DNA of 64,000 bases from Phyllosticta citribraziliensis (GCF_038025025.1 NW_027117344.1:248001-312000), one strand, 5' to 3'; positions 3 to 10,468 are shown, counted from the stretch's first letter. Notes: a model not told the origin generated them from the letters alone. Numbers and translations: made by a program.

Positions 3-3000
3 GGACTGCCAAACTTCTCTGGACTTCCGACTGGCGCTCTCGAAAGCTTGGTGAGCGGTCTGCCTTCGCAGATCATCAGCGCAATCACCCAACCGCCTGC
101 AGTACTTTCCAGTGCATTGGACAACTTGCCCACCCAGGTATTGCCTTCAGTCCTTTCTGAGCTGTCCGAGTTGCAAAGCCAGCTGCCTACACTGCTCCCA
201 ACTCAACCCCTGATCAGCTTGATCAGCGATTTGCCTTCGGCGATCCAAAGCGCGATTACTCAGCCCCCCGCGGCTCTTTCTAGTGCCCTGGACAACCTGC
301 CAACTGGAATTCTTCCATCGGTACTATCAGAACTGTCACAAATCCAGAGCGCCCTGCCTACTCTCAGCAACGTGGCCCCCCTGGAGAGCCTCGTTAGCGG
401 CTTACCCTCTGCAATCCAGTCCGCTTTAACACAGCCTCCCGCAATACTCTCTAGCGCGTTGGACAACTTGCCGACTCAGGTCCTTCCATCTGTGCTGTCT
501 GAGCTGTCTGAGCTTCAGAGTGCCTTGCCTACTGCTCCCATCGGATCCATCATCTCGGCTTTGCCCAGCAACCTGGCCCCAGTGGAGTCTCTCGTTAGTG
601 GCTTGCCTTCAGCTATCCAAAGCGCCCTTACTCAGCCGGCTCCGATCCTCTCTAGTGCTTTGGAGAACTTGCCCACGCAGGCTTTGCCCTCCGTGCTGTC
701 AGAATTGTCCCAGATCCAAAGTCTTGTTCCCACGGCGCCAATTGGGTCCATTATCTCGGCCTTGCCCAGCAACCTGGCCCCGGTGGAGTCTCTCGTCAGC
801 GGCTTGCCCTCAGCAATTCAGAGTGCCCTTACTCAGCCTCCAGCGATACTCTCCAGCGCCCTGAGTAACTTGCCAACCCAGGTGCTGCCCTCCGTTTTGA
901 GCCAGATCAGCCAGATTGAGAGTGCTATTCCTTCGGTTATCTCTCCTATCGGCAGCATCATTTCTGGAATCCCGTCAGCGGTCCCTAGCATCTTGCCCAG
1001 TGGTGCTTTGTCCAGCGCATTGGGCCCGCTGGAGAGTGCACTCACCCAGCTTCCCGGAGGCGTCGAGTCGGCCTTGTCCCAGATCGCTACAAACCCAGCT
1101 GCGTTGTCCAGTGCAATTGGTGCACTTCCCAGTTCCGTGCTACCGGCCTTGAGTTCTGAGCTGTCGGCGATTGGCTCCGCCTTGACGCCCGTGGCCTCGA
1201 ACCTTGCTCCCATTGCCAGCAACTTGCCTGGAGCTGTTTCGTCCATCGTCAGTGGTCTTGAGCCCATTGCATCGATCTTGAATCCTAGCAACAACCCCTT
1301 GACGAGTCTCCTGAACCCCTCTAACATTGGAAGCATCATCAATCCCTCAGGTATCTCGTCAGCATTCAACCCCCTGACGTCGGCTTTGAACCCGTCTGGA
1401 TTGACGTCTGCACTGAACCCGCTTTCATCGGCGCTTAACCCATCTGGATTATCGTCTGCACTGAACCCGCTTTCATCAGCGCTCAACCCCTCTGGATTGA
1501 CGTCTGTACTGAACCCGCTTTCATCGGCGCTCAACCCGTCTGGTCTTTCGTCCGCGTTGAACCCGCTGTCGTCCGCTCTTAACCCATCTGGTCTTTCGTC
1601 TGCATTGAACCCGCTGTCGTCCGCTCTTAACCCCTCTGGATTGTCGTCAGCTCTCAACCCCCTGACCTCCGCGTTGAACCCGTCTGGTCTTTCATCCGCG
1701 TTGAACCCGCTGTCCTCGGCCTTGAACCCGTCAGGCCTGTCTTCCGCGTTGAACCCGCTGTCGTCTGCCCTGAACCCGTCAGGATTGTCGTCAGCTCTTA
1801 ACCCCCTGACCTCCGCCTTGAACCCGTCTGGTCTTTCATCCGCGTTGAACCCGCTGTCCTCGGCCTTGAACCCGTCAGGTCTTTCATCCGCGTTGAACCC
1901 GCTGTCCTCGGCCTTGAACCCGTCAGGCCTGTCTTCCGCGTTAAACCCGCTGTCGTCCGCCCTGAACCCGTCAGGTCTTTCCTCTGCATTGAACCCGCTG
2001 TCGTCGGCTCTCAACCCCCTGACTTCCGCCCTGAACCCGTCAGGCCTTTCCTCTGCGTTGAACCCGCTGTCGTCGGCTCTCAACCCCCTGACTTCCGCCC
2101 TGAACCCGTCAGGCCTTTCCTCTGCGTTGAACCCGCTGTCGTCGGCTCTCAACCCCCTGACTTCCGCCCTGAACCCGTCAGGCCTTTCCTCTGCGTTGAA
2201 TCCGCTGTCGTCAGCACTTAACCCGCTTTCGTCTGCCCTGAACCCGTCAGGCCTTTCCTCTGCGTTGAACCCGCTGTCGTCGGCTCTCAACCCCCTGACT
2301 TCCGCCCTGAACCCGTCAGGCCTTTCCTCTGCATTGAATCCGCTGTCGTCGGCACTTAACCCGCTTTCGTCTGCCCTGAACCCGTCGGGCCTGTCTTCTG
2401 CCTTGAACCCGCTGTCGTCGGCTCTCAACCCCTTGACTTCCGCCCTGAACCCGTCGGGCCTGTCTTCTGCCTTGAACCCGTTGTCCTCGGCGCTTAACCC
2501 CCTGACTTCGGCTCTCAATCCCTCGGCTCTGTCCTCGGCCATCAACCCCCTGACTTCAGCACTTAATCCCACACGCCTCTCCTCGGTATTGAACCCTGTC
2601 ACTTCGATCGTCAATCCCTCTGGTATTGTTTCCGGTGTCAACTCGATTGCCACGGGCATCAACTCGCTTGGAAACGGCGTATCATCAGCACTCGGAGGAG
2701 CAAACACCGCCGCAGCCTCTCTTGGAGCTGGCGTGAGTTCCGCGTTGGGCGGCGGCCTCGGGTCCATCCTCAACCCGACAGCGACTGCCGCCCCGTCCTC
2801 CACTAGGGCTGTGACGGCGCCTGGCGCCTCCTTTTCCATCATCGCGACGGGCACTGTGTACGGCAACGTGTACAACTACGTCTTCTACGCCAACACGCTT
2901 GTGAGCGTCAATGGCGGGTTCCTCGACCCGCGGACGGGCTCCGTCCAGGGTCTCCTACCCGGCGGCCAGCTCGTCGCCCTCCTGAGCGACGGTCTGCACA

Positions 3001-3113
3001 TCGCCAACAGGCTTGTGCCTTACCCGCAGGCGTGGTTGGAGATCCTGGCCCAGCTAGGCATCCGTCTCCCCATCGTCTCGCGTCTCCCCATCAACATCCC
3101 CGCCAAGGCTTAA
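3..3113 (+). CDS. 5'-truncated low-complexity Ser/Ala/Leu/Pro/Asn tandem-repeat protein (possibly secreted/cell-wall structural protein)
   Basis: Frame is open from base 3 to TAA at 3111-3113, so the start lies upstream of the window. It has ~5 copies of a ~60-66-aa repeat (LESLVSGLPSAIQSALTQPPAILSSALDNLPTQVLPSVLSELS), then ~50 SALNP-based 7/9-aa units, then a unique ~100-aa C-terminus. Variation between repeats is mostly at third codon positions, supporting coding status on +. Confidence 0.85.
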   Translation, partial: GLPNFSGLPTGALESLVSGLPSQIISAITQPPAVLSSALDNLPTQVLPSVLSELSELQSQLPTLLPTQPLISLISDLPSAIQSAITQPPAALSSALDNLPTGILPSVLSELSQIQSALPTLSNVAPLESLVSGLPSAIQSALTQPPAILSSALDNLPTQVLPSVLSELSELQSALPTAPIGSIISALPSNLAPVESLVSGLPSAIQSALTQPAPILSSALENLPTQALPSVLSELSQIQSLVPTAPIGSIISALPSNLAPVESLVSGLPSAIQSALTQPPAILSSALSNLPTQVLPSVLSQISQIESAIPSVISPIGSIISGIPSAVPSILPSGALSSALGPLESALTQLPGGVESALSQIATNPAALSSAIGALPSSVLPALSSELSAIGSALTPVASNLAPIASNLPGAVSSIVSGLEPIASILNPSNNPLTSLLNPSNIGSIINPSGISSAFNPLTSALNPSGLTSALNPLSSALNPSGLSSALNPLSSALNPSGLTSVLNPLSSALNPSGLSSALNPLSSALNPSGLSSALNPLSSALNPSGLSSALNPLTSALNPSGLSSALNPLSSALNPSGLSSALNPLSSALNPSGLSSALNPLTSALNPSGLSSALNPLSSALNPSGLSSALNPLSSALNPSGLSSALNPLSSALNPSGLSSALNPLSSALNPLTSALNPSGLSSALNPLSSALNPLTSALNPSGLSSALNPLSSALNPLTSALNPSGLSSALNPLSSALNPLSSALNPSGLSSALNPLSSALNPLTSALNPSGLSSALNPLSSALNPLSSALNPSGLSSALNPLSSALNPLTSALNPSGLSSALNPLSSALNPLTSALNPSALSSAINPLTSALNPTRLSSVLNPVTSIVNPSGIVSGVNSIATGINSLGNGVSSALGGANTAAASLGAGVSSALGGGLGSILNPTATAAPSSTRAVTAPGASFSIIATGTVYGNVYNYVFYANTLVSVNGGFLDPRTGSVQGLLPGGQLVALLSDGLHIANRLVPYPQAWLEILAQLGIRLPIVSRLPINIPAKA
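1356..2600 (+). repeat. Coding minisatellite: 21-bp (SALNPLS/T) and 27-bp (SALNPSGLS) units forming 48-bp and then 69-bp higher-order repeats
   Basis: Seen directly, e.g. recurring ttgaacccgctgtcgtc and aacccgtcaggcctttcctctgcg. Period switches from 16 aa to 23 aa at about 1990. Confidence 0.95.
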
Positions 3114-5040
3114 TGAATTCTTCGACGACCTTTGAGATCCTTCCCGTTGGTTTGCAAGCTTTAGCGAAGCGTTACGCAGCAGCATCATCATCATCATCAT
3201 CGTCATCATACGTACATTCTTGACCGTCTTTTTCCGCTCCCGCTATCGTCTACATTGTAGAAGAGAAAAGTCCAGTCATGCGCGCGCCAGTCAACACTTT
3301 CCTTTTTCGCTTCTCTTTTCTCCCGGGGATTGTTTTACTTTTCTATCCAGCCCGACATCATAACGACGAAAAAGAGGGTCTGTGTTTGCTAATGAGAAAG
3401 AACCTGTCTGATGATCATGTCAAAGCAAAAAAGCTGTTCGGCCAAACTTGGATCTTTGGACGCCTGTAATACCTCATGTTATCGATGTACGAGCGCCTGT
3501 GTACTTGTACTTTTAGAGAGAGGAGAGCTTGGGGTGAATTCAGCTTTTTTCCTTACTTTGCTGCCCTGATGCGTGACTTTTGCAATGCGTAAGAAAATTG
3601 ATGTTGCTGACTGTGTTAAGAGAGCAGTGGGCGAGTTCATCGGTTGAGGATGACGAATGCTCCCAGGAGAAGTAGAAAGAGGGAAGGCACTTGGAAACAA
3701 CAATTTGCAAATGAGGAGGGACGTAGAGACAGGTATCCCGGGATTGGCTCTTTTGTCCCGAGTTTCGCAAGTCATCGGAGCGATCGATTGGACCTCTCTA
3801 CTAGGCGAAGAAGACATTGTTCTTTGAGGCCTTCTGGAGGCTCGGAGTCTACATTTCCACGTGGAGATATCACAGCGAGGAGAAGTACAAACAGGAGCAG
3901 AAGGGCAAGGCAAGATCAAAGCGAATTGACAAGAGACAAATACAATAGGACACTGCGCCCCGTCCCGCGATAATCGGCGCTTGACGTATGCACAACATGT
4001 TAGTATTTGAATACTTCTGGCAGGAGGAAGAGGCTGGTCTTCTGTAGCGCCAGAAAAGCAAAAGAAAGAAAGCTGAGGATTCAGGCTTATGAGGGGGTTG
4101 GTTCCAGTTGTAGCACTCCCGTCGGCCGAAAGAGGCAATGTCTGATTCTGCAACTTCAAACGTAGTAGAGCTTCTGATCTCCCGTCGGTTCTCACTCCGG
4201 ATGGTCTGTCTTCCGCACAGTCCCCAGCGTTCAACTCTCTCAGGACTGACGACACTTTCACTACGTTCGAAGTTAAAAACCGATAGCCTCTTTGGGCCAT
4301 TGCGATACAACTTCAAACGTAGTACTTCTGATTTCCCATCAGCTAGCTCTCAATATGGGTGGTCTGTCTTCCGCACCACCAGCAGGCATTGAACCCGTTG
4401 TCCTCGGAGCTCAACCCGCTGAGGACACTTCCACTACGTTTGAAGTTGAAAACTGATAGCCTCTTTGGGCGATTGCGATACAACTTCAAACGTAGAGACG
4501 TCTGACACCTATCAATTCCAGCGGAATCCCCCCGACTGGTCTGAAGAAATCGATGAACATAGGAACAGAATGAAATGTATGCATGCTACTTCAGCGTCAC
4601 CGACAGCAGAAACTATCATTACAACATGACGGCGTCAGCCAGAACCCAGGCCTCCTGCAAGTACCGTACCCAGAAAAGGACGGCAGGATGCCGGGCCTAG
4701 CATATCAGGAAGTCAATCCAAAGTATGTAGAGGAGGCCATATATTGGAGCCTGACGTCTGAGGCGGACACACTCCGTTGGCCGAAAGAGGCAACCCCCAA
4801 TTTTGCAATCTCAAACGTAGTAGAGCTTTTGCTGCCGTCGCCAGTCTCCCTATCATTTCGGTGTTGCCCAGAACGATTGCCTCTTTGGGCGATTGAGAAG
4901 CAACTTCAAACGTAGTAAAGCTTTTGTTCCTAGCAGTATTGCCACTCACAACGACTGTACTGGGCAGCCCGCTGAGGATGCCTCTACTACGTTTGAAGTT
5001 ATACAAGGGATGACCCTTTTCGGCACATGAGGTCCCAATT

Positions 5041-5377
5041 TCAAACGTAGTAGAGCTTCTGTTCGACAGTCTTCCTAGCAGTGTTGAACCTTCCGTCTAC
5101 CGCTCTAGACAGCCTGCCATCAAGCAAAGCTCAACTACGTTTGAAGTTATGAACCGATCACCTCTTTGGGCGGATGAGGTCCAACTTCAAACGTAGTAGA
5201 ACTTCTGTTCAACAGTTTTCCTAGCAGTGTTGAACCTCACGTCAACCGCTCTAGACAGCCTGCCATCAAGCAAAGCTCAACTACGTTCGAAGTTACGAAC
5301 CGATTACCTCTTTGGGCGGATGAGGTCCAACTTCAAGCGCAGTAAAGCTTCTGCTCGACAGTCTTCCTAGCAGTGTT
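5041..5377. repeat. ~146-bp tandem duplication (~2.3 copies) inside the palindromic array
   Basis: tcaaacgtagtag...cttctgttc...cctagcagtgttgaacc...ccgctctagacagcctgccatcaagcaaagctcaactacg recurs at 5041, 5187 and (partly) 5333. Confidence 0.9.
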
Positions 5378-5475
5378 TTCCCTCTGCACTCGGCCGCTAT
5401 GTTCGAAGTTGCGAAACGATTACCTCTTTTGGCCACGCTGGCAGACCGATTAATGGTTCATTTGACCAGATTCTC

Positions 5476-5546
5476 TCAGCACTTGACAAGATTCCATCAG
5501 CACTTGACAAGATTCCATCAGCACTTGACAAGATTCCATCAGCACT
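5476..5546. repeat. 21-bp tandem repeat (tcagcacttgacaagattcca) x3.3
   Basis: Three exact copies 5476-5538 plus a partial copy; reads SALDKIP in one + frame. Confidence 0.95.
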
Positions 5547-5926
5547 CGGCCGCTACGTTTGAAGTTGCGAAACGATTGCCTCTTTCGGCCACGTTGGTAG
5601 AATGATTTAAGAGCACACTTGACAAGATACCATCGGCACTCGGCCGCTACTTTCAAAGTTGTAGAACGATTGCCCCTTTGGGACACGTGGGCAGATCGAT
5701 CAATGGTCCGATGAACAAGATACCATCGGCACTCGGCCGCTACGTTCAATGTTGCAGAACGATTACCTCTTTCGGCGAACAGTACTTTCCATCCCGTCGC
5801 TCTTCCCATAAATCCGCCGTCTCTGCGCAGCCAACCCCGGTATCGTGCGGAATAGATGGCGTACACCATCAAGCATCGATGACGAGACATCAGGAAAAAA
5901 AAAAAAAAAAAAAAAAAGGGACATAA

Positions 5927-6310
5927 TCTCAATCCACACTCCCACCCTCCTAATTATTCACTATCCACCCTCTTAAACTGAATCCACCCTCCCAAGAATT
6001 ATATAAGCAAGGGGGCCCGTGAGTAGTAAAATTTTCACTATTCTCTTATATTATAATCTTACTCCTGGTATTTTATATACACTTTTTAACCTTACTAACC
6101 TAGTTAGTACTACCTTATTATTCTTATTTCTACCTTATCACTATAGGCGCGCGCATGTAGGAGTATAGTAGTGGTAGTAGTGGTGGTGGTGATTATATAA
6201 GAACTAAAACAACAAATGACTTACCTAATTGAGATGGGATACGGGGAGGGTATATTCAGTTTAAGAGGGTGGATGGTGAGCGGGGTGGTATAATATTGTG
6301 TGGATTGAGA
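5927..6310. mobile_element. Non-autonomous TIR element (MITE-like), AT/TpA-rich and probably RIP-mutated
   Basis: Left end tctcaatccacac...tcactatccaccctcttaaactgaatccaccctccc (5927-5993) is the imperfect reverse complement of right end gggagggtatattcagtttaagagggtggatggtga...gtgtggattgaga (6244-6310). No internal ORF; strongly AT-rich against GC-rich flanks. Confidence 0.75.
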
Positions 6311-7149
6311 ATTTAACACAAAAAAAAAAAAAAAAAAAAACAGTGCTTGGATCTCCTCTGCGCAATAAGGGCGCGAGCGGAAATCAGACTGCCATAGCAT
6401 GTTGGCATCTGCTAGACGCCCAGCAGAGAAGGAGTACATGTCGTATCCGCGTGGTTCACTGCTGTCGTCCGCCAGCTTTGCTTCTGCGAAAGAAGAGAGA
6501 GGCTAGTAAGGCCTTTGTACCTGCCACCGCCCCTTTTCACATAGCAGCCCGTCGCTGCATGCTTTTCGTGCCTCAAGGGCGCCGCCATATAAATCTTCTC
6601 CTCTCAAATGCAAGAAAGAATCAAGCAAGACGATGCCAAACATCCCTTCTCTGGAGTTCAAGAAGAAGGATTACTGGTGGCTGTGCTGTTCTGTGAGCAT
6701 AGTGGCAGAGATAGAAGCTGCGTGCTCAGTCAGTTTTTATGGGATGTTGTTGAGAAGAAATGTTGACTGTGTTTATGAAGACATGCTGATTTGTTTTTGT
6801 GTGGTGTGGTGGAGACCTGAGTTGACAAGCTTCTCACGTGTGAATGCTCCCCATGTGCGTGTGCTGTGTGCGTACAGACGCTCCCTATATGCATGCTCTT
6901 ACTGCGTGCGTGCGAAATGCCAGCTCATAGTATACATACACGCTCTATGTGCGCGGATGCTCCCAGTGATCAACGCGTCGACGGGTTGCGATGTCGCTGC
7001 TCAGGAGCGTCAATACGGGAAGATGCAATATGAGGAAAGCGACCAAAGGCCTAGGAGAGCCAGAGCCGCCAGAAACCGGACAAGGGGTTTGTCCCCGTCC
7101 GACCTCGACTTTGATTACACTGCCCGAATCAGCCTCATCCACCCCCCCA

Positions 7150-8140
7150 CTACAACCCCTCCAAGAGCTTCTCAACCACCAGCGCCACGCCCTCTCCCGT
7201 CTCCCAGCACTCATCATGCTGCCCCTTTATGTCAACCGTCCGCACACCCGCCGCAGCCTCCTCCGCCGCCCGCCTCATCAGCTCCACCTGCTCCCACTCC
7301 ACCAGCCCATCCACGCGGCTCTGCGCCAGAACCACCCTCTGCAACCGCTTCAACACAGGCGCCACGCGCACCGGACTCGCCTCCGCCCACGCCGCTCTCA
7401 TGGCGTCGTCGACGCTGCCGCCATCGCCGCCGAATGCGCCGGCTAGGATCTCCGCGTACACGGGCACGTCGCCGTGATTCGCCGCGAAGCGCGGGACGTC
7501 GTAGATGCCCGAGATGCCCGCGACAGCACGCGGCAGCGCGCCCGCCTCCTCTAAATGTGGCAGCACCTGCAGCGCGAGCGTGGCGCCGCAGCTGTGGCCG
7601 AGCAGGACGAAGGGGCGCTGGGAGCCGACGGCGTAGAGGCGGCGCAGGGCGGCGAGCGCCTCGAGCACGTCGTCGCGGTGCGCGGGGTGCGCGACGGCGC
7701 GGCCTTCGAGCGCCGCGGCGGTCGTGTCGGGGGGGAGGCGGGTTGGGTGCGTCGGGTGTGTTGGGTAGGGCGAGAGGCGGTAGTGGAGGGAGGCGATGCC
7801 GGCGATGTGCGGGAGAGAGGGCGAGTTGTTGCGCAAGAGGTACGCGATGGTGGGTTGGATGGAGGAGGCGGCGATGAGCGGGTCGCGCCAGGCGCCGCCG
7901 TGGATGTAGCTGAGGACAGCGTTAGCAAATTGCGTTGTACTGTGTTGTTGTGGTGTAGTTGATTGTGGCGCGGGGCGGCGGGCATGTTCGGTGGTGGGGA
8001 GCTCGTCTCGACTCGACTCACACTACCCAGACTGCATCTTCAGGACTCTCCTCGAGGGGCCGCGGGAGCCAGATGTCGAGCGTGTTGAGGCGCGAATGCG
8101 TCGCGTAAGGAATGTCGTTGATGTAGAGAGGATAGGCCAT
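7150..8140 (-). CDS. BNA7: Kynurenine formamidase (alpha/beta hydrolase), 2 exons (intron 7910-8021)
   Basis: Spliced reading gives MAYPLYINDIPY...LNTLDIWLP...WVVYIHGGAWRDP, then ASLHYRLSPYP, the GHSCGA nucleophile motif, GIYD and a C-terminal GQHDECW. Donor GTGAGT, branch GCTAAC and acceptor CAG are present. Confidence 0.85.
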
Positions 8141-9924: not shown

Positions 9925-10468
9925 GTTGTCGTGGAGAGCAGCGGTGGTGTGAACAGCCTAAGAGATGCTCGAAGCTCTCGGACTGGACTGACTGGGTAGC
10001 TCGGCGTTGGAGCCAGAGGCCGTCCGTCTCTCGGCGCCGCCCATGGTTTTCTCCGCTGCACGGACCAGGGAAGCAGCCGCAGAAGGACCACAGGCATCCT
10101 CGCAGTTTCTCCAACACCAACCAGGCCACCCACTATGATTAAGTCAATTCGAACATCGATCCAAAATTCCATTTTCAATCCTACTACAACCGAGTCTCTA
10201 CTGCCTCCAATCACATTCAATCCACAAGAGCAAGGACAAAGACAACAAAACGTCATTGAAAGGCCGAACTATCATCAATCTCAAGTCAAGATGCAGGGTA
10301 TCATGGCATCATCATCATCGTCGTCGTCATCAATCATAACCCCATAGAGACGTATTGATCCAAAAGACCCCGAATGCTTTTCTTTTCCCCTCCTTTCCTT
10401 TCCCTTCCCAATCCAGCCACCCAGCCGGTCCACCACCATGACCACAAGCCCAACTCCAACCACCACAC

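Follow-up and report, generated by a model that had tools for sequence, protein, structure and literature searches.

Does the palindromic array that lies downstream of a repeat-protein gene in the fungus Phyllosticta citribraziliensis represent a genetic system of a new kind, or is it a by-product of DNA turnover? The DNA in question is a stretch of 64,000 nucleotides (nt) (GCF_038025025.1 NW_027117344.1:248001-312000), called the window below, with positions counted from its first letter. In the array, short palindromic repeats alternate with dissimilar spacers, and an initial annotation of the DNA had taken the spacers to be copies of the gene's coding repeats and had proposed an undescribed system. 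That proposal gives way here to a simpler one, as the locus is best read as a small inverted-repeat unit that has turned into a tandem array with captured host sequence. On balance, the evidence tips towards an array specific to this locus, which arose by tandem growth from a single small foldback unit and probably has no function. Most likely it was left behind, as a relic, by accidents in DNA copying or by a small transposon, and is not a new regulatory system.

The repeating unit consists of a palindromic core of ~62 nt, in which arms of 14-22 nt flank a conserved GCCTCTTTGGGC box, together with a spacer of 53-119 nt; one spacer reaches 284 nt. The array is defined by two motifs, an arm and the box. 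The arm reads AACTTCAAACGTAG in one orientation (L) and CTACGTTTGAAGTT in the inverted one (R), and the box likewise has an inverted copy. All 14 occurrences of the arm motif and all 11 of the box motif fall inside 4125-5776, against chance expectations of 0.01 and 0.4. The modules run in the order inverted box, L, spacer, R and box, after which L-spacer-R-box units repeat, and the box is found in 11 of 11 units as well as in two inverted copies. Terminal inverted repeats with arms of ~45 nt are present (4124-4165 against 4261-4297), and 16-nt perfect blocks are shared with 5553-5590. Two nested foldbacks result from this arrangement: R, box, linker and L make up the ~62-nt core hairpin, and L, spacer and R make up a larger one. 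The unit is small (~175 nt) and is devoid of coding capacity, with stop codons in every frame. Tandem Repeats Finder (TRF) reports periods of 146 nt (4982-5377), 94 nt (5522-5775) and 21 nt (5462-5546) in the array; outside the gene, the window contains one further tandem repeat with a TRF score of at least 100, a 63-nt repeat.

The observation that carries the link to the gene is the match of 4389-4422 to coding positions 2472-2505, which was reproduced at 31 of 34 letters with 19 nt exact (44.1 bits). Dinucleotide shuffling of 4100-5800 never reached this score in 500 trials (maximum 30.2), and the match also exceeds everything found in 34 natural 1.7-kb segments of the window (0/34; maximum 28.2). 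A second line of evidence comes from a profile built from the gene's thirteen 48-nt units, which was run with nhmmer on both strands of positions 3114-64000 (61 kb). It returned two significant matches only, both on the + strand and both in array spacers. The stronger, at 4346-4418 in spacer S2 (E 1.1e-5), joins GLSSA codons to LNPLSSELNPL codons across a 13-nt insertion, and the other, at 4182-4253 in spacer S1 (E 0.0042), carries a 9-nt deletion; the next-best match in the 61 kb scored 5.3 bits. The gene-like copy in S2 is non-coding now, because its halves lie in different reading frames (open reading frames (ORFs) 4292..4456 and 4359..4505). The further likeness of GGTCTGTCTTCCGC, at 4203 and 4361, to the gene's GGCCTGTCTTCCGC (1734 and 1926) was found again at 13 of 14 letters, yet it is not significant by itself, as natural segments hold 0-22 such windows, and its only weight comes from being collinear with the significant match.

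How far does this likeness extend along the array? Each of the 11 spacers was compared with 300 shuffles of its own. S1 and S2 were strong in this test; S6 and S7, which are mutual duplicates, and S9 were weak (2-4 bits, 0/300 shuffles); and S3, S4, S5, S8, S10 and S11 had no gene likeness. The idea that the array's spacers are copies of the gene's repeats can be kept for two spacers and for at most four to five of the 11, S6 and S7 resembling the gene repeat weakly, and is lost for the remainder. In the same way, the statement that pieces derived from the gene lie downstream of their source, enclosed by hairpin arms, is true of S1 and S2. The other echoes that had been listed did not rise above background. 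The ALDSLP codons (5102 and 5248, compared with ~286) match at 16 of 20 letters, and there are 10 such windows in the rest of the array and 2-35 in natural segments. The 21-bp repeat at 5476, encoding SALDKIP, is a genuine tandem repeat (4.0 copies, 5462-5546), whereas its likeness to the gene's SALDNLP is at chance level, and so is the minus-strand NPLISLNP echo. A profile of the gene's N-terminal repeat found no match within the array, and at the peptide level the array's best score of 26.4 bits equals that of the best natural segment. In the comparison across the window, homology of the array beyond itself was to the gene's repeats only. Judged by sequence likeness, therefore, two spacers are clearly gene-derived, and the other listed echoes are chance.

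S1 and S2 also resemble one another, including in their non-gene flanks (score 47, shuffle maximum 24). Because these non-gene letters around the gene-like piece are common to both, the two spacers are duplicates of one acquisition of ~75 nt, which fits the earlier suggestion that the fragment was amplified together with a palindromic element. Likeness among spacers proceeds stepwise along the array (S1-S2, S2-S5, S5-S7/S8, S6-S7-S8, S8-S9/10/11, S9-S10-S11); 12 of 45 spacer pairs exceed all 200 shuffles, and distant pairs such as S2-S6 lie at the shuffle mean. This stepwise likeness of neighbours is the pattern left when tandem duplicates decay. Between close unit pairs, 26 transitions stand against 5 transversions, many of the differences at CpG. 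The indices of repeat-induced point mutation (RIP) for the array, 0.85 for TpA/ApT and 1.09 for (CpA+TpG)/(ApC+GpT), fall short of the thresholds commonly applied for RIP.

A plausible course of events can be assembled from these features. The founding unit may have been similar to one of the MITEs (miniature inverted-repeat transposable elements), with inverted ends of ~45 nt (box GCCGAAAGAGGC plus arm AACTTCAAACGTAG) around an interior of ~95 nt, and that interior would have been a sense copy, ~75 nt or ~1.5 periods long, of the 48-nt coding repeat from the gene 1-2 kb upstream. Uptake of the fragment could have occurred through template switching in replication or repair, or through capture between transposon ends. 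As the stepwise likeness of neighbouring units shows, spacer, R arm, box and L arm were then duplicated in head-to-tail fashion, through slippage or unequal exchange, and the copies have since decayed through transition-rich point changes and indels. The arrangement typical of Pack-type elements, a gene fragment between inverted ends, is found in unit 1 (4182-4253) and again in unit 2 (4346-4422). The features are collected in Table 1.

Table 1. Features of the repeat-protein gene and of the downstream palindromic array (window coordinates).
Feature	Position	Strand	Basis and remarks
Repeat-protein gene	3..3113	+	ORF and translation, unit list; 5′ end cut by window edge
Source tract, 48-nt and 69-nt coding repeats (NPSGLSSALNPLSSAL)	1340..2600	+	TRF rows 1344-2586, unit list
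Probable 3′ untranslated region (UTR) of repeat gene	3114..3534	+	RNA-like contigs from two studies (X2, X4) stop at 3527 and 3534; adapter after 3534
Whole palindromic tandem array, about 11 units	4119..5790	.	Repeat and motif searches
Full left end 1: inverted box GCCGAAAGAGGC and L arm	4119..4176	+	Foldback of ~45-nt arms with 4254-4297, z -3.8
Gene-like part of spacer S1	4182..4253	+	~1.5 periods of 48-nt repeat, 9-nt deletion; nhmmer E 0.0042; 11.4 bits, 0/300 shuffles
Core hairpin 1: R arm, box, linker, L arm	4261..4322	.	Motif positions
Gene-like part of spacer S2	4346..4422	+	GLSSA codons, 13-nt insertion, LNPLSSELNPL codons; halves frame-shifted
Core hairpin 2	4434..4495	.	z -5.0 (+ strand), -5.35 (- strand)
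S3, unique 284-nt stretch interrupting array	4496..4779	.	9-mer GACGTCTGA at 4497 and 4753
Full left end 2	4774..4831	+	83% identical to 4119-4176; 9 transitions, 1 transversion
Units U5-U8, 146-nt-period subfamily	4902..5377	.	U6/U7 93% alike
21-bp tandem repeat inside spacer S9, 4.0 copies	5462..5546	+	TRF
Three 94-nt-period units, R arm and box only	5553..5776	.	No partner arm; folding z about 0

Several observations weigh against growth from a single foldback unit followed by neutral decay. Inspection of the flanks by eye brought out no clean target-site duplication at the array ends, whose similarity seems to continue past GGCC. Copies of the arm or the box are absent from the other 62 kb of the window, and because of this, and of the single-copy-like depth of the array in a second organism described below, mobility of the unit is unproven. 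Moreover, S2 shows more likeness to the gene (91%) than there is among the spacers, a difference that requires either decay at uneven rates or conversion by the gene at a later time. Finally, the core is kept far better than neutral decay predicts. The cores of U1/2 and U6/7 differ at 3 of 47 arm and box positions versus 18 of 30 others (Fisher p 3.7e-7), and perfect (100%) complementarity over 18-19 nt persists between the arms of units with spacers that cannot be aligned (S1/S2 versus S6/S7). The better conservation of the core may reflect palindrome-provoked breakage that is repaired from other cores, or a constraint on the DNA sequence itself.

A constraint of that kind is what would be expected if the core, comprising the arms and the GAACGATTGCCTCTTTGGGC block, were a functional cis element under selection, either as an array of protein-binding sites or as a hairpin-RNA cluster between two convergent genes, the repeat-protein gene and one that is hydrolase-like, with spacers free to turn over and sometimes to take up neighbouring DNA. 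This is unlikely, though it has the patchy conservation just described to commend it, together with the presence of the box in every unit, the identity of arms across units with unalignable spacers, the pairing of box and arm with different linker and spacer letters at loose contig ends from the second organism, and the standing of the array as the sole large tandem array of the window outside the gene. The folding data speak the other way. Core hairpin and larger foldback fold far beyond shuffles, but alike on both strands (z -5.0 to -6.2); compensatory changes were found in 0 of 18 predicted pairs, and the substitutions observed disrupt pairing; and the last three units, which have an R arm and box without a partner arm, fold at chance (z about 0). 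A search of Rfam at E<=1 returned mir-1006 only (E 0.21, 24.7 bits, against a gathering score of 64), and a search for transfer RNAs returned none. The array pieces of the second organism are also only ~85-88% alike (contig record 19), compared with ~94% for a piece of the 3′ UTR and 92% for a coding piece (7271-7897). In a more far-reaching version, selection would have preserved the core in two organisms or more, the spacers would turn over, now and then acquiring DNA from nearby, and the array would be a eukaryotic repeat-and-spacer locus with a cis function where two convergent genes meet. Such a locus is improbable on the present evidence; were it real, its cis function would be that of a hairpin-RNA cluster or of binding sites for an unknown protein, and the repeat-gene piece would be a trace of spacer acquisition.

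Other explanations start from the gene-like pieces or from the hairpins. Collinearity of the pieces, their placement on the gene's own strand, weak + strand likeness in S6, S7 and S9, and the fact that the array holds, on its + strand, three of the five next-best profile matches of the 61 kb would all agree with what is left of a complete tandem paralogue after a palindromic element had invaded its repeat tract. This decayed paralogue, one of the two alternatives in the initial annotation, is nevertheless doubtful and is unsupported as a full gene copy, because nothing of the unique C-terminal domain is found downstream: a tblastn search with the C-terminal 173 amino acids against 3114-6400 gave a best E of 3.6, for the repeat-like piece. 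The N-terminal repeats likewise leave no trace downstream, six of 11 spacers lack gene likeness, and only pieces of ~75 nt are gene-like; with their common non-gene flanks, S1 and S2 go back to the copying of one small piece, rather than to consecutive stretches of a long tract. A further idea with little in its favour makes the 62-nt core a tiny mobile palindrome in its own right, which would have inserted time and again into DNA derived from the gene, so that cores would be young and spacers old. The cores are indeed far more alike than the spacers, and the arms behave as short inverted ends, but neighbouring units have both spacer and core in common, which is a signature of tandem duplication; no target-site duplications were seen by eye, there are no copies elsewhere in the 62 kb, and depth in the second organism is single-copy-like. 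The remaining alternative of the initial annotation, in which a cis-linked cassette would use small RNAs from its hairpins to silence the repeat gene, or would recombine with the gene's repeat tract, is very improbable given the anatomy of the array. Its hairpins are strong, and the 34-nt piece is 91% identical to the gene (19 nt exact) at a distance of 1.9 kb in direct orientation. The gene-like piece sits in the loop and not in the double-stranded stem, which makes a silencing hairpin unlikely; it is also in sense orientation, and neither in the gene nor in the rest of the window do the arms and stems have a match. Crossing-over between the direct repeats would remove the gene's 3′ end, gene sequence is present in two spacers only, and the exact shared run is only 19 nt.

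Contigs from X2, X4 and X8 were also compared with the array region (4108-5916). None was found there except for one piece from 4389 on, a result that is uninformative on expression, and this piece is probably the gene's own contig, with a loose end that matches the letters before 2472. Two further identities for the core were considered and dropped. As an intron (GT...AG), it would have a 5′ site, GTTTGA, that is presumably poor by the fungal consensus, and it had no RNA cover; as a box C/D or H/ACA small nucleolar RNA, it would have boxes that were not seen by eye. An ORF at 3482-4300 on the - strand had no hits in a homologue search, and a metagenome scan with the core pattern found no match.

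A second organism, called organism B here and represented by run X7, provides a comparison. Its data are DNA-like, with single contigs over 3′ UTR, array, coding sequence and intron all at a depth of 68-80. Organism B contigs that are 85-96% alike to the window hold the array modules in a different order, with many joints. One of them, record 19 (depth 69), covers 4242-4429, including the whole of S2, and 4871-5083. Because the contigs of organism B carry it, an array with a gene-like spacer predates the split of the two organisms. Array contigs in organism B have depths of 69 and 127-137, resembling those of the flanks (68-133), and the array is not a high-copy family there, its depth being single-copy-like. 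One joint leads from 3557 to 5658, with just 25 letters on one side, and hints weakly that the array follows the same gene in organism B. At loose ends of the contigs, box and arm stand beside other linker and spacer letters, a hint that the core may be better kept in this organism as well.

The long spacer S3 (4496-4779) splits the array in the window, and inverted ends were not seen in it. Record 19 has 154 letters where the window has 441, that is, ~287 nt fewer around S3, which fits absence of the 284-nt stretch. S3 may be a later insertion.

The gene upstream of the array (3-3113), cut at its 5′ end by the window, encodes N-terminal repeats of ~57 amino acids, followed by 13 units of 16 amino acids and seven of 23 amino acids, of the NPSGLSSALNPLSSAL type, and then by a unique C-terminal domain. 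That domain is without a Pfam family, and the single Pfam match of the gene, Baculo_PEP_C, is placed on the repeats. In a large protein library, the C-terminal domain has 28 representatives at E<=0.001, and the only close named homologue is a hypothetical protein of Saccharata proteae, to which the C-terminus is 61% identical; Phyllosticta and Saccharata both belong to the Botryosphaeriales. The gene has more than 1036 codons compared with 349 amino acids in the Saccharata protein, and the common part is the C-terminal ~165 amino acids only, which points to a lineage-specific expansion of the NPSGLSSALNPLSSAL tract. A metagenome scan with the C-terminal 173 amino acids found no match.

Transcript-like data exist for the gene and its flank. 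The ends of the RNA-like contigs listed in Table 1 hint weakly that the repeat-gene mRNA ends at ~3527-3534, about 590 nt ahead of the array. The gene's contig has the highest depth among the contigs placed (2467, X2), although contig depth cannot rank genes. Past the end of the main contig at 3527, two X2 RNA-like contigs of low depth (7.7) lie at 3622-3937, which suggests weak read-through or a separate faint transcript between gene and array. Within the probable 3′ UTR, positions 3182-3208 form a CAT-type trinucleotide run that has a 93% look-alike 7 kb away, at 10306-10332.

On the far side of the array, the stretch 5895-6340 contains an inverted repeat (5958-5993 versus 6244-6279, 92%) that is framed by A runs at 5895-5917 and 6320-6340, and TATA-like words were noticed there by eye. 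RNA-like contigs from X2 and X4 (depths of about 1984 and 54) align to 5927-6092 with 20 differing letters, and they have 226 other letters between 6092 and 6244. From these differences, a related copy elsewhere seems to be strongly represented in RNA.

How, then, does the array compare with known systems? Its architecture, and only that, recalls clustered regularly interspaced short palindromic repeats (CRISPR), where palindromic repeats also alternate with dissimilar spacers, some of them from other DNA. Unlike CRISPR, its genome is eukaryotic, with genes that are spliced (7909-8022, with CT..AC ends, is skipped by RNA-like contigs), its neighbouring spacers are homologous, its spacers measure 53-284 nt, and there is no sign of acquisition machinery. 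Fungal hairpin-RNA and microRNA-like loci carry their target homology in the stem. Like them, the array has stable intergenic hairpins that measure 60-110 nt, but its stem is without target homology and its gene-like part is in the loop. Pack-MULEs, and transduplication in Pyrenophora tritici-repentis, reportedly involve gene fragments carried between transposon ends. Like Pack-type elements, which hold such fragments in sense or antisense, the array has a short non-coding piece of a host gene between inverted ends; unlike them, its fragment is just ~75 nt long, the parent is the immediate neighbour, amplification is tandem and not dispersed, and the family is unassigned.

Among animal MITEs, Xstir and miDNA4 are described to hold or spawn tandem arrays and to take up a piece of tandem repeat (PMC12628747). 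With these the present array has in common a small, non-coding, inverted-repeat-bounded unit, arrays made from its parts, composite element-array forms, and an interior derived from a pre-existing tandem repeat. It differs from them in being found at one locus, with neither dispersed copies nor a target-site duplication shown, in having an interior that comes from the coding repeat of an adjacent gene, and in its fungal host. Tandem dimers of transposons have likewise been described to expand into arrays (McGurk and Barbash 2018, PMC5932611), with a likeness to the present array in the head-to-tail end junctions and in growth to about 10-16 copies at one place; the dimers described there are known active full-length elements, whereas the array here has no transposase partner or mobility shown. 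No fungal account of such a captured-repeat foldback array was found in a narrow search of the literature, which included Phyllosticta transposable elements, MITEs, and inverted and tandem repeats.

What the locus adds is an instance, in a fungus, of a piece of a coding tandem repeat that entered a small foldback unit and was amplified beside its parent gene, a capture-and-amplify route that is already known from animal MITE-derived arrays. The better preservation of the core than of the spacers points to palindrome-driven gene conversion or to an unknown constraint, and may be of interest to specialists. Finally, the array serves as a warning case, as a locus with the look of repeats and spacers, even when some of the spacers derive from a gene, need not be a defence or silencing system.

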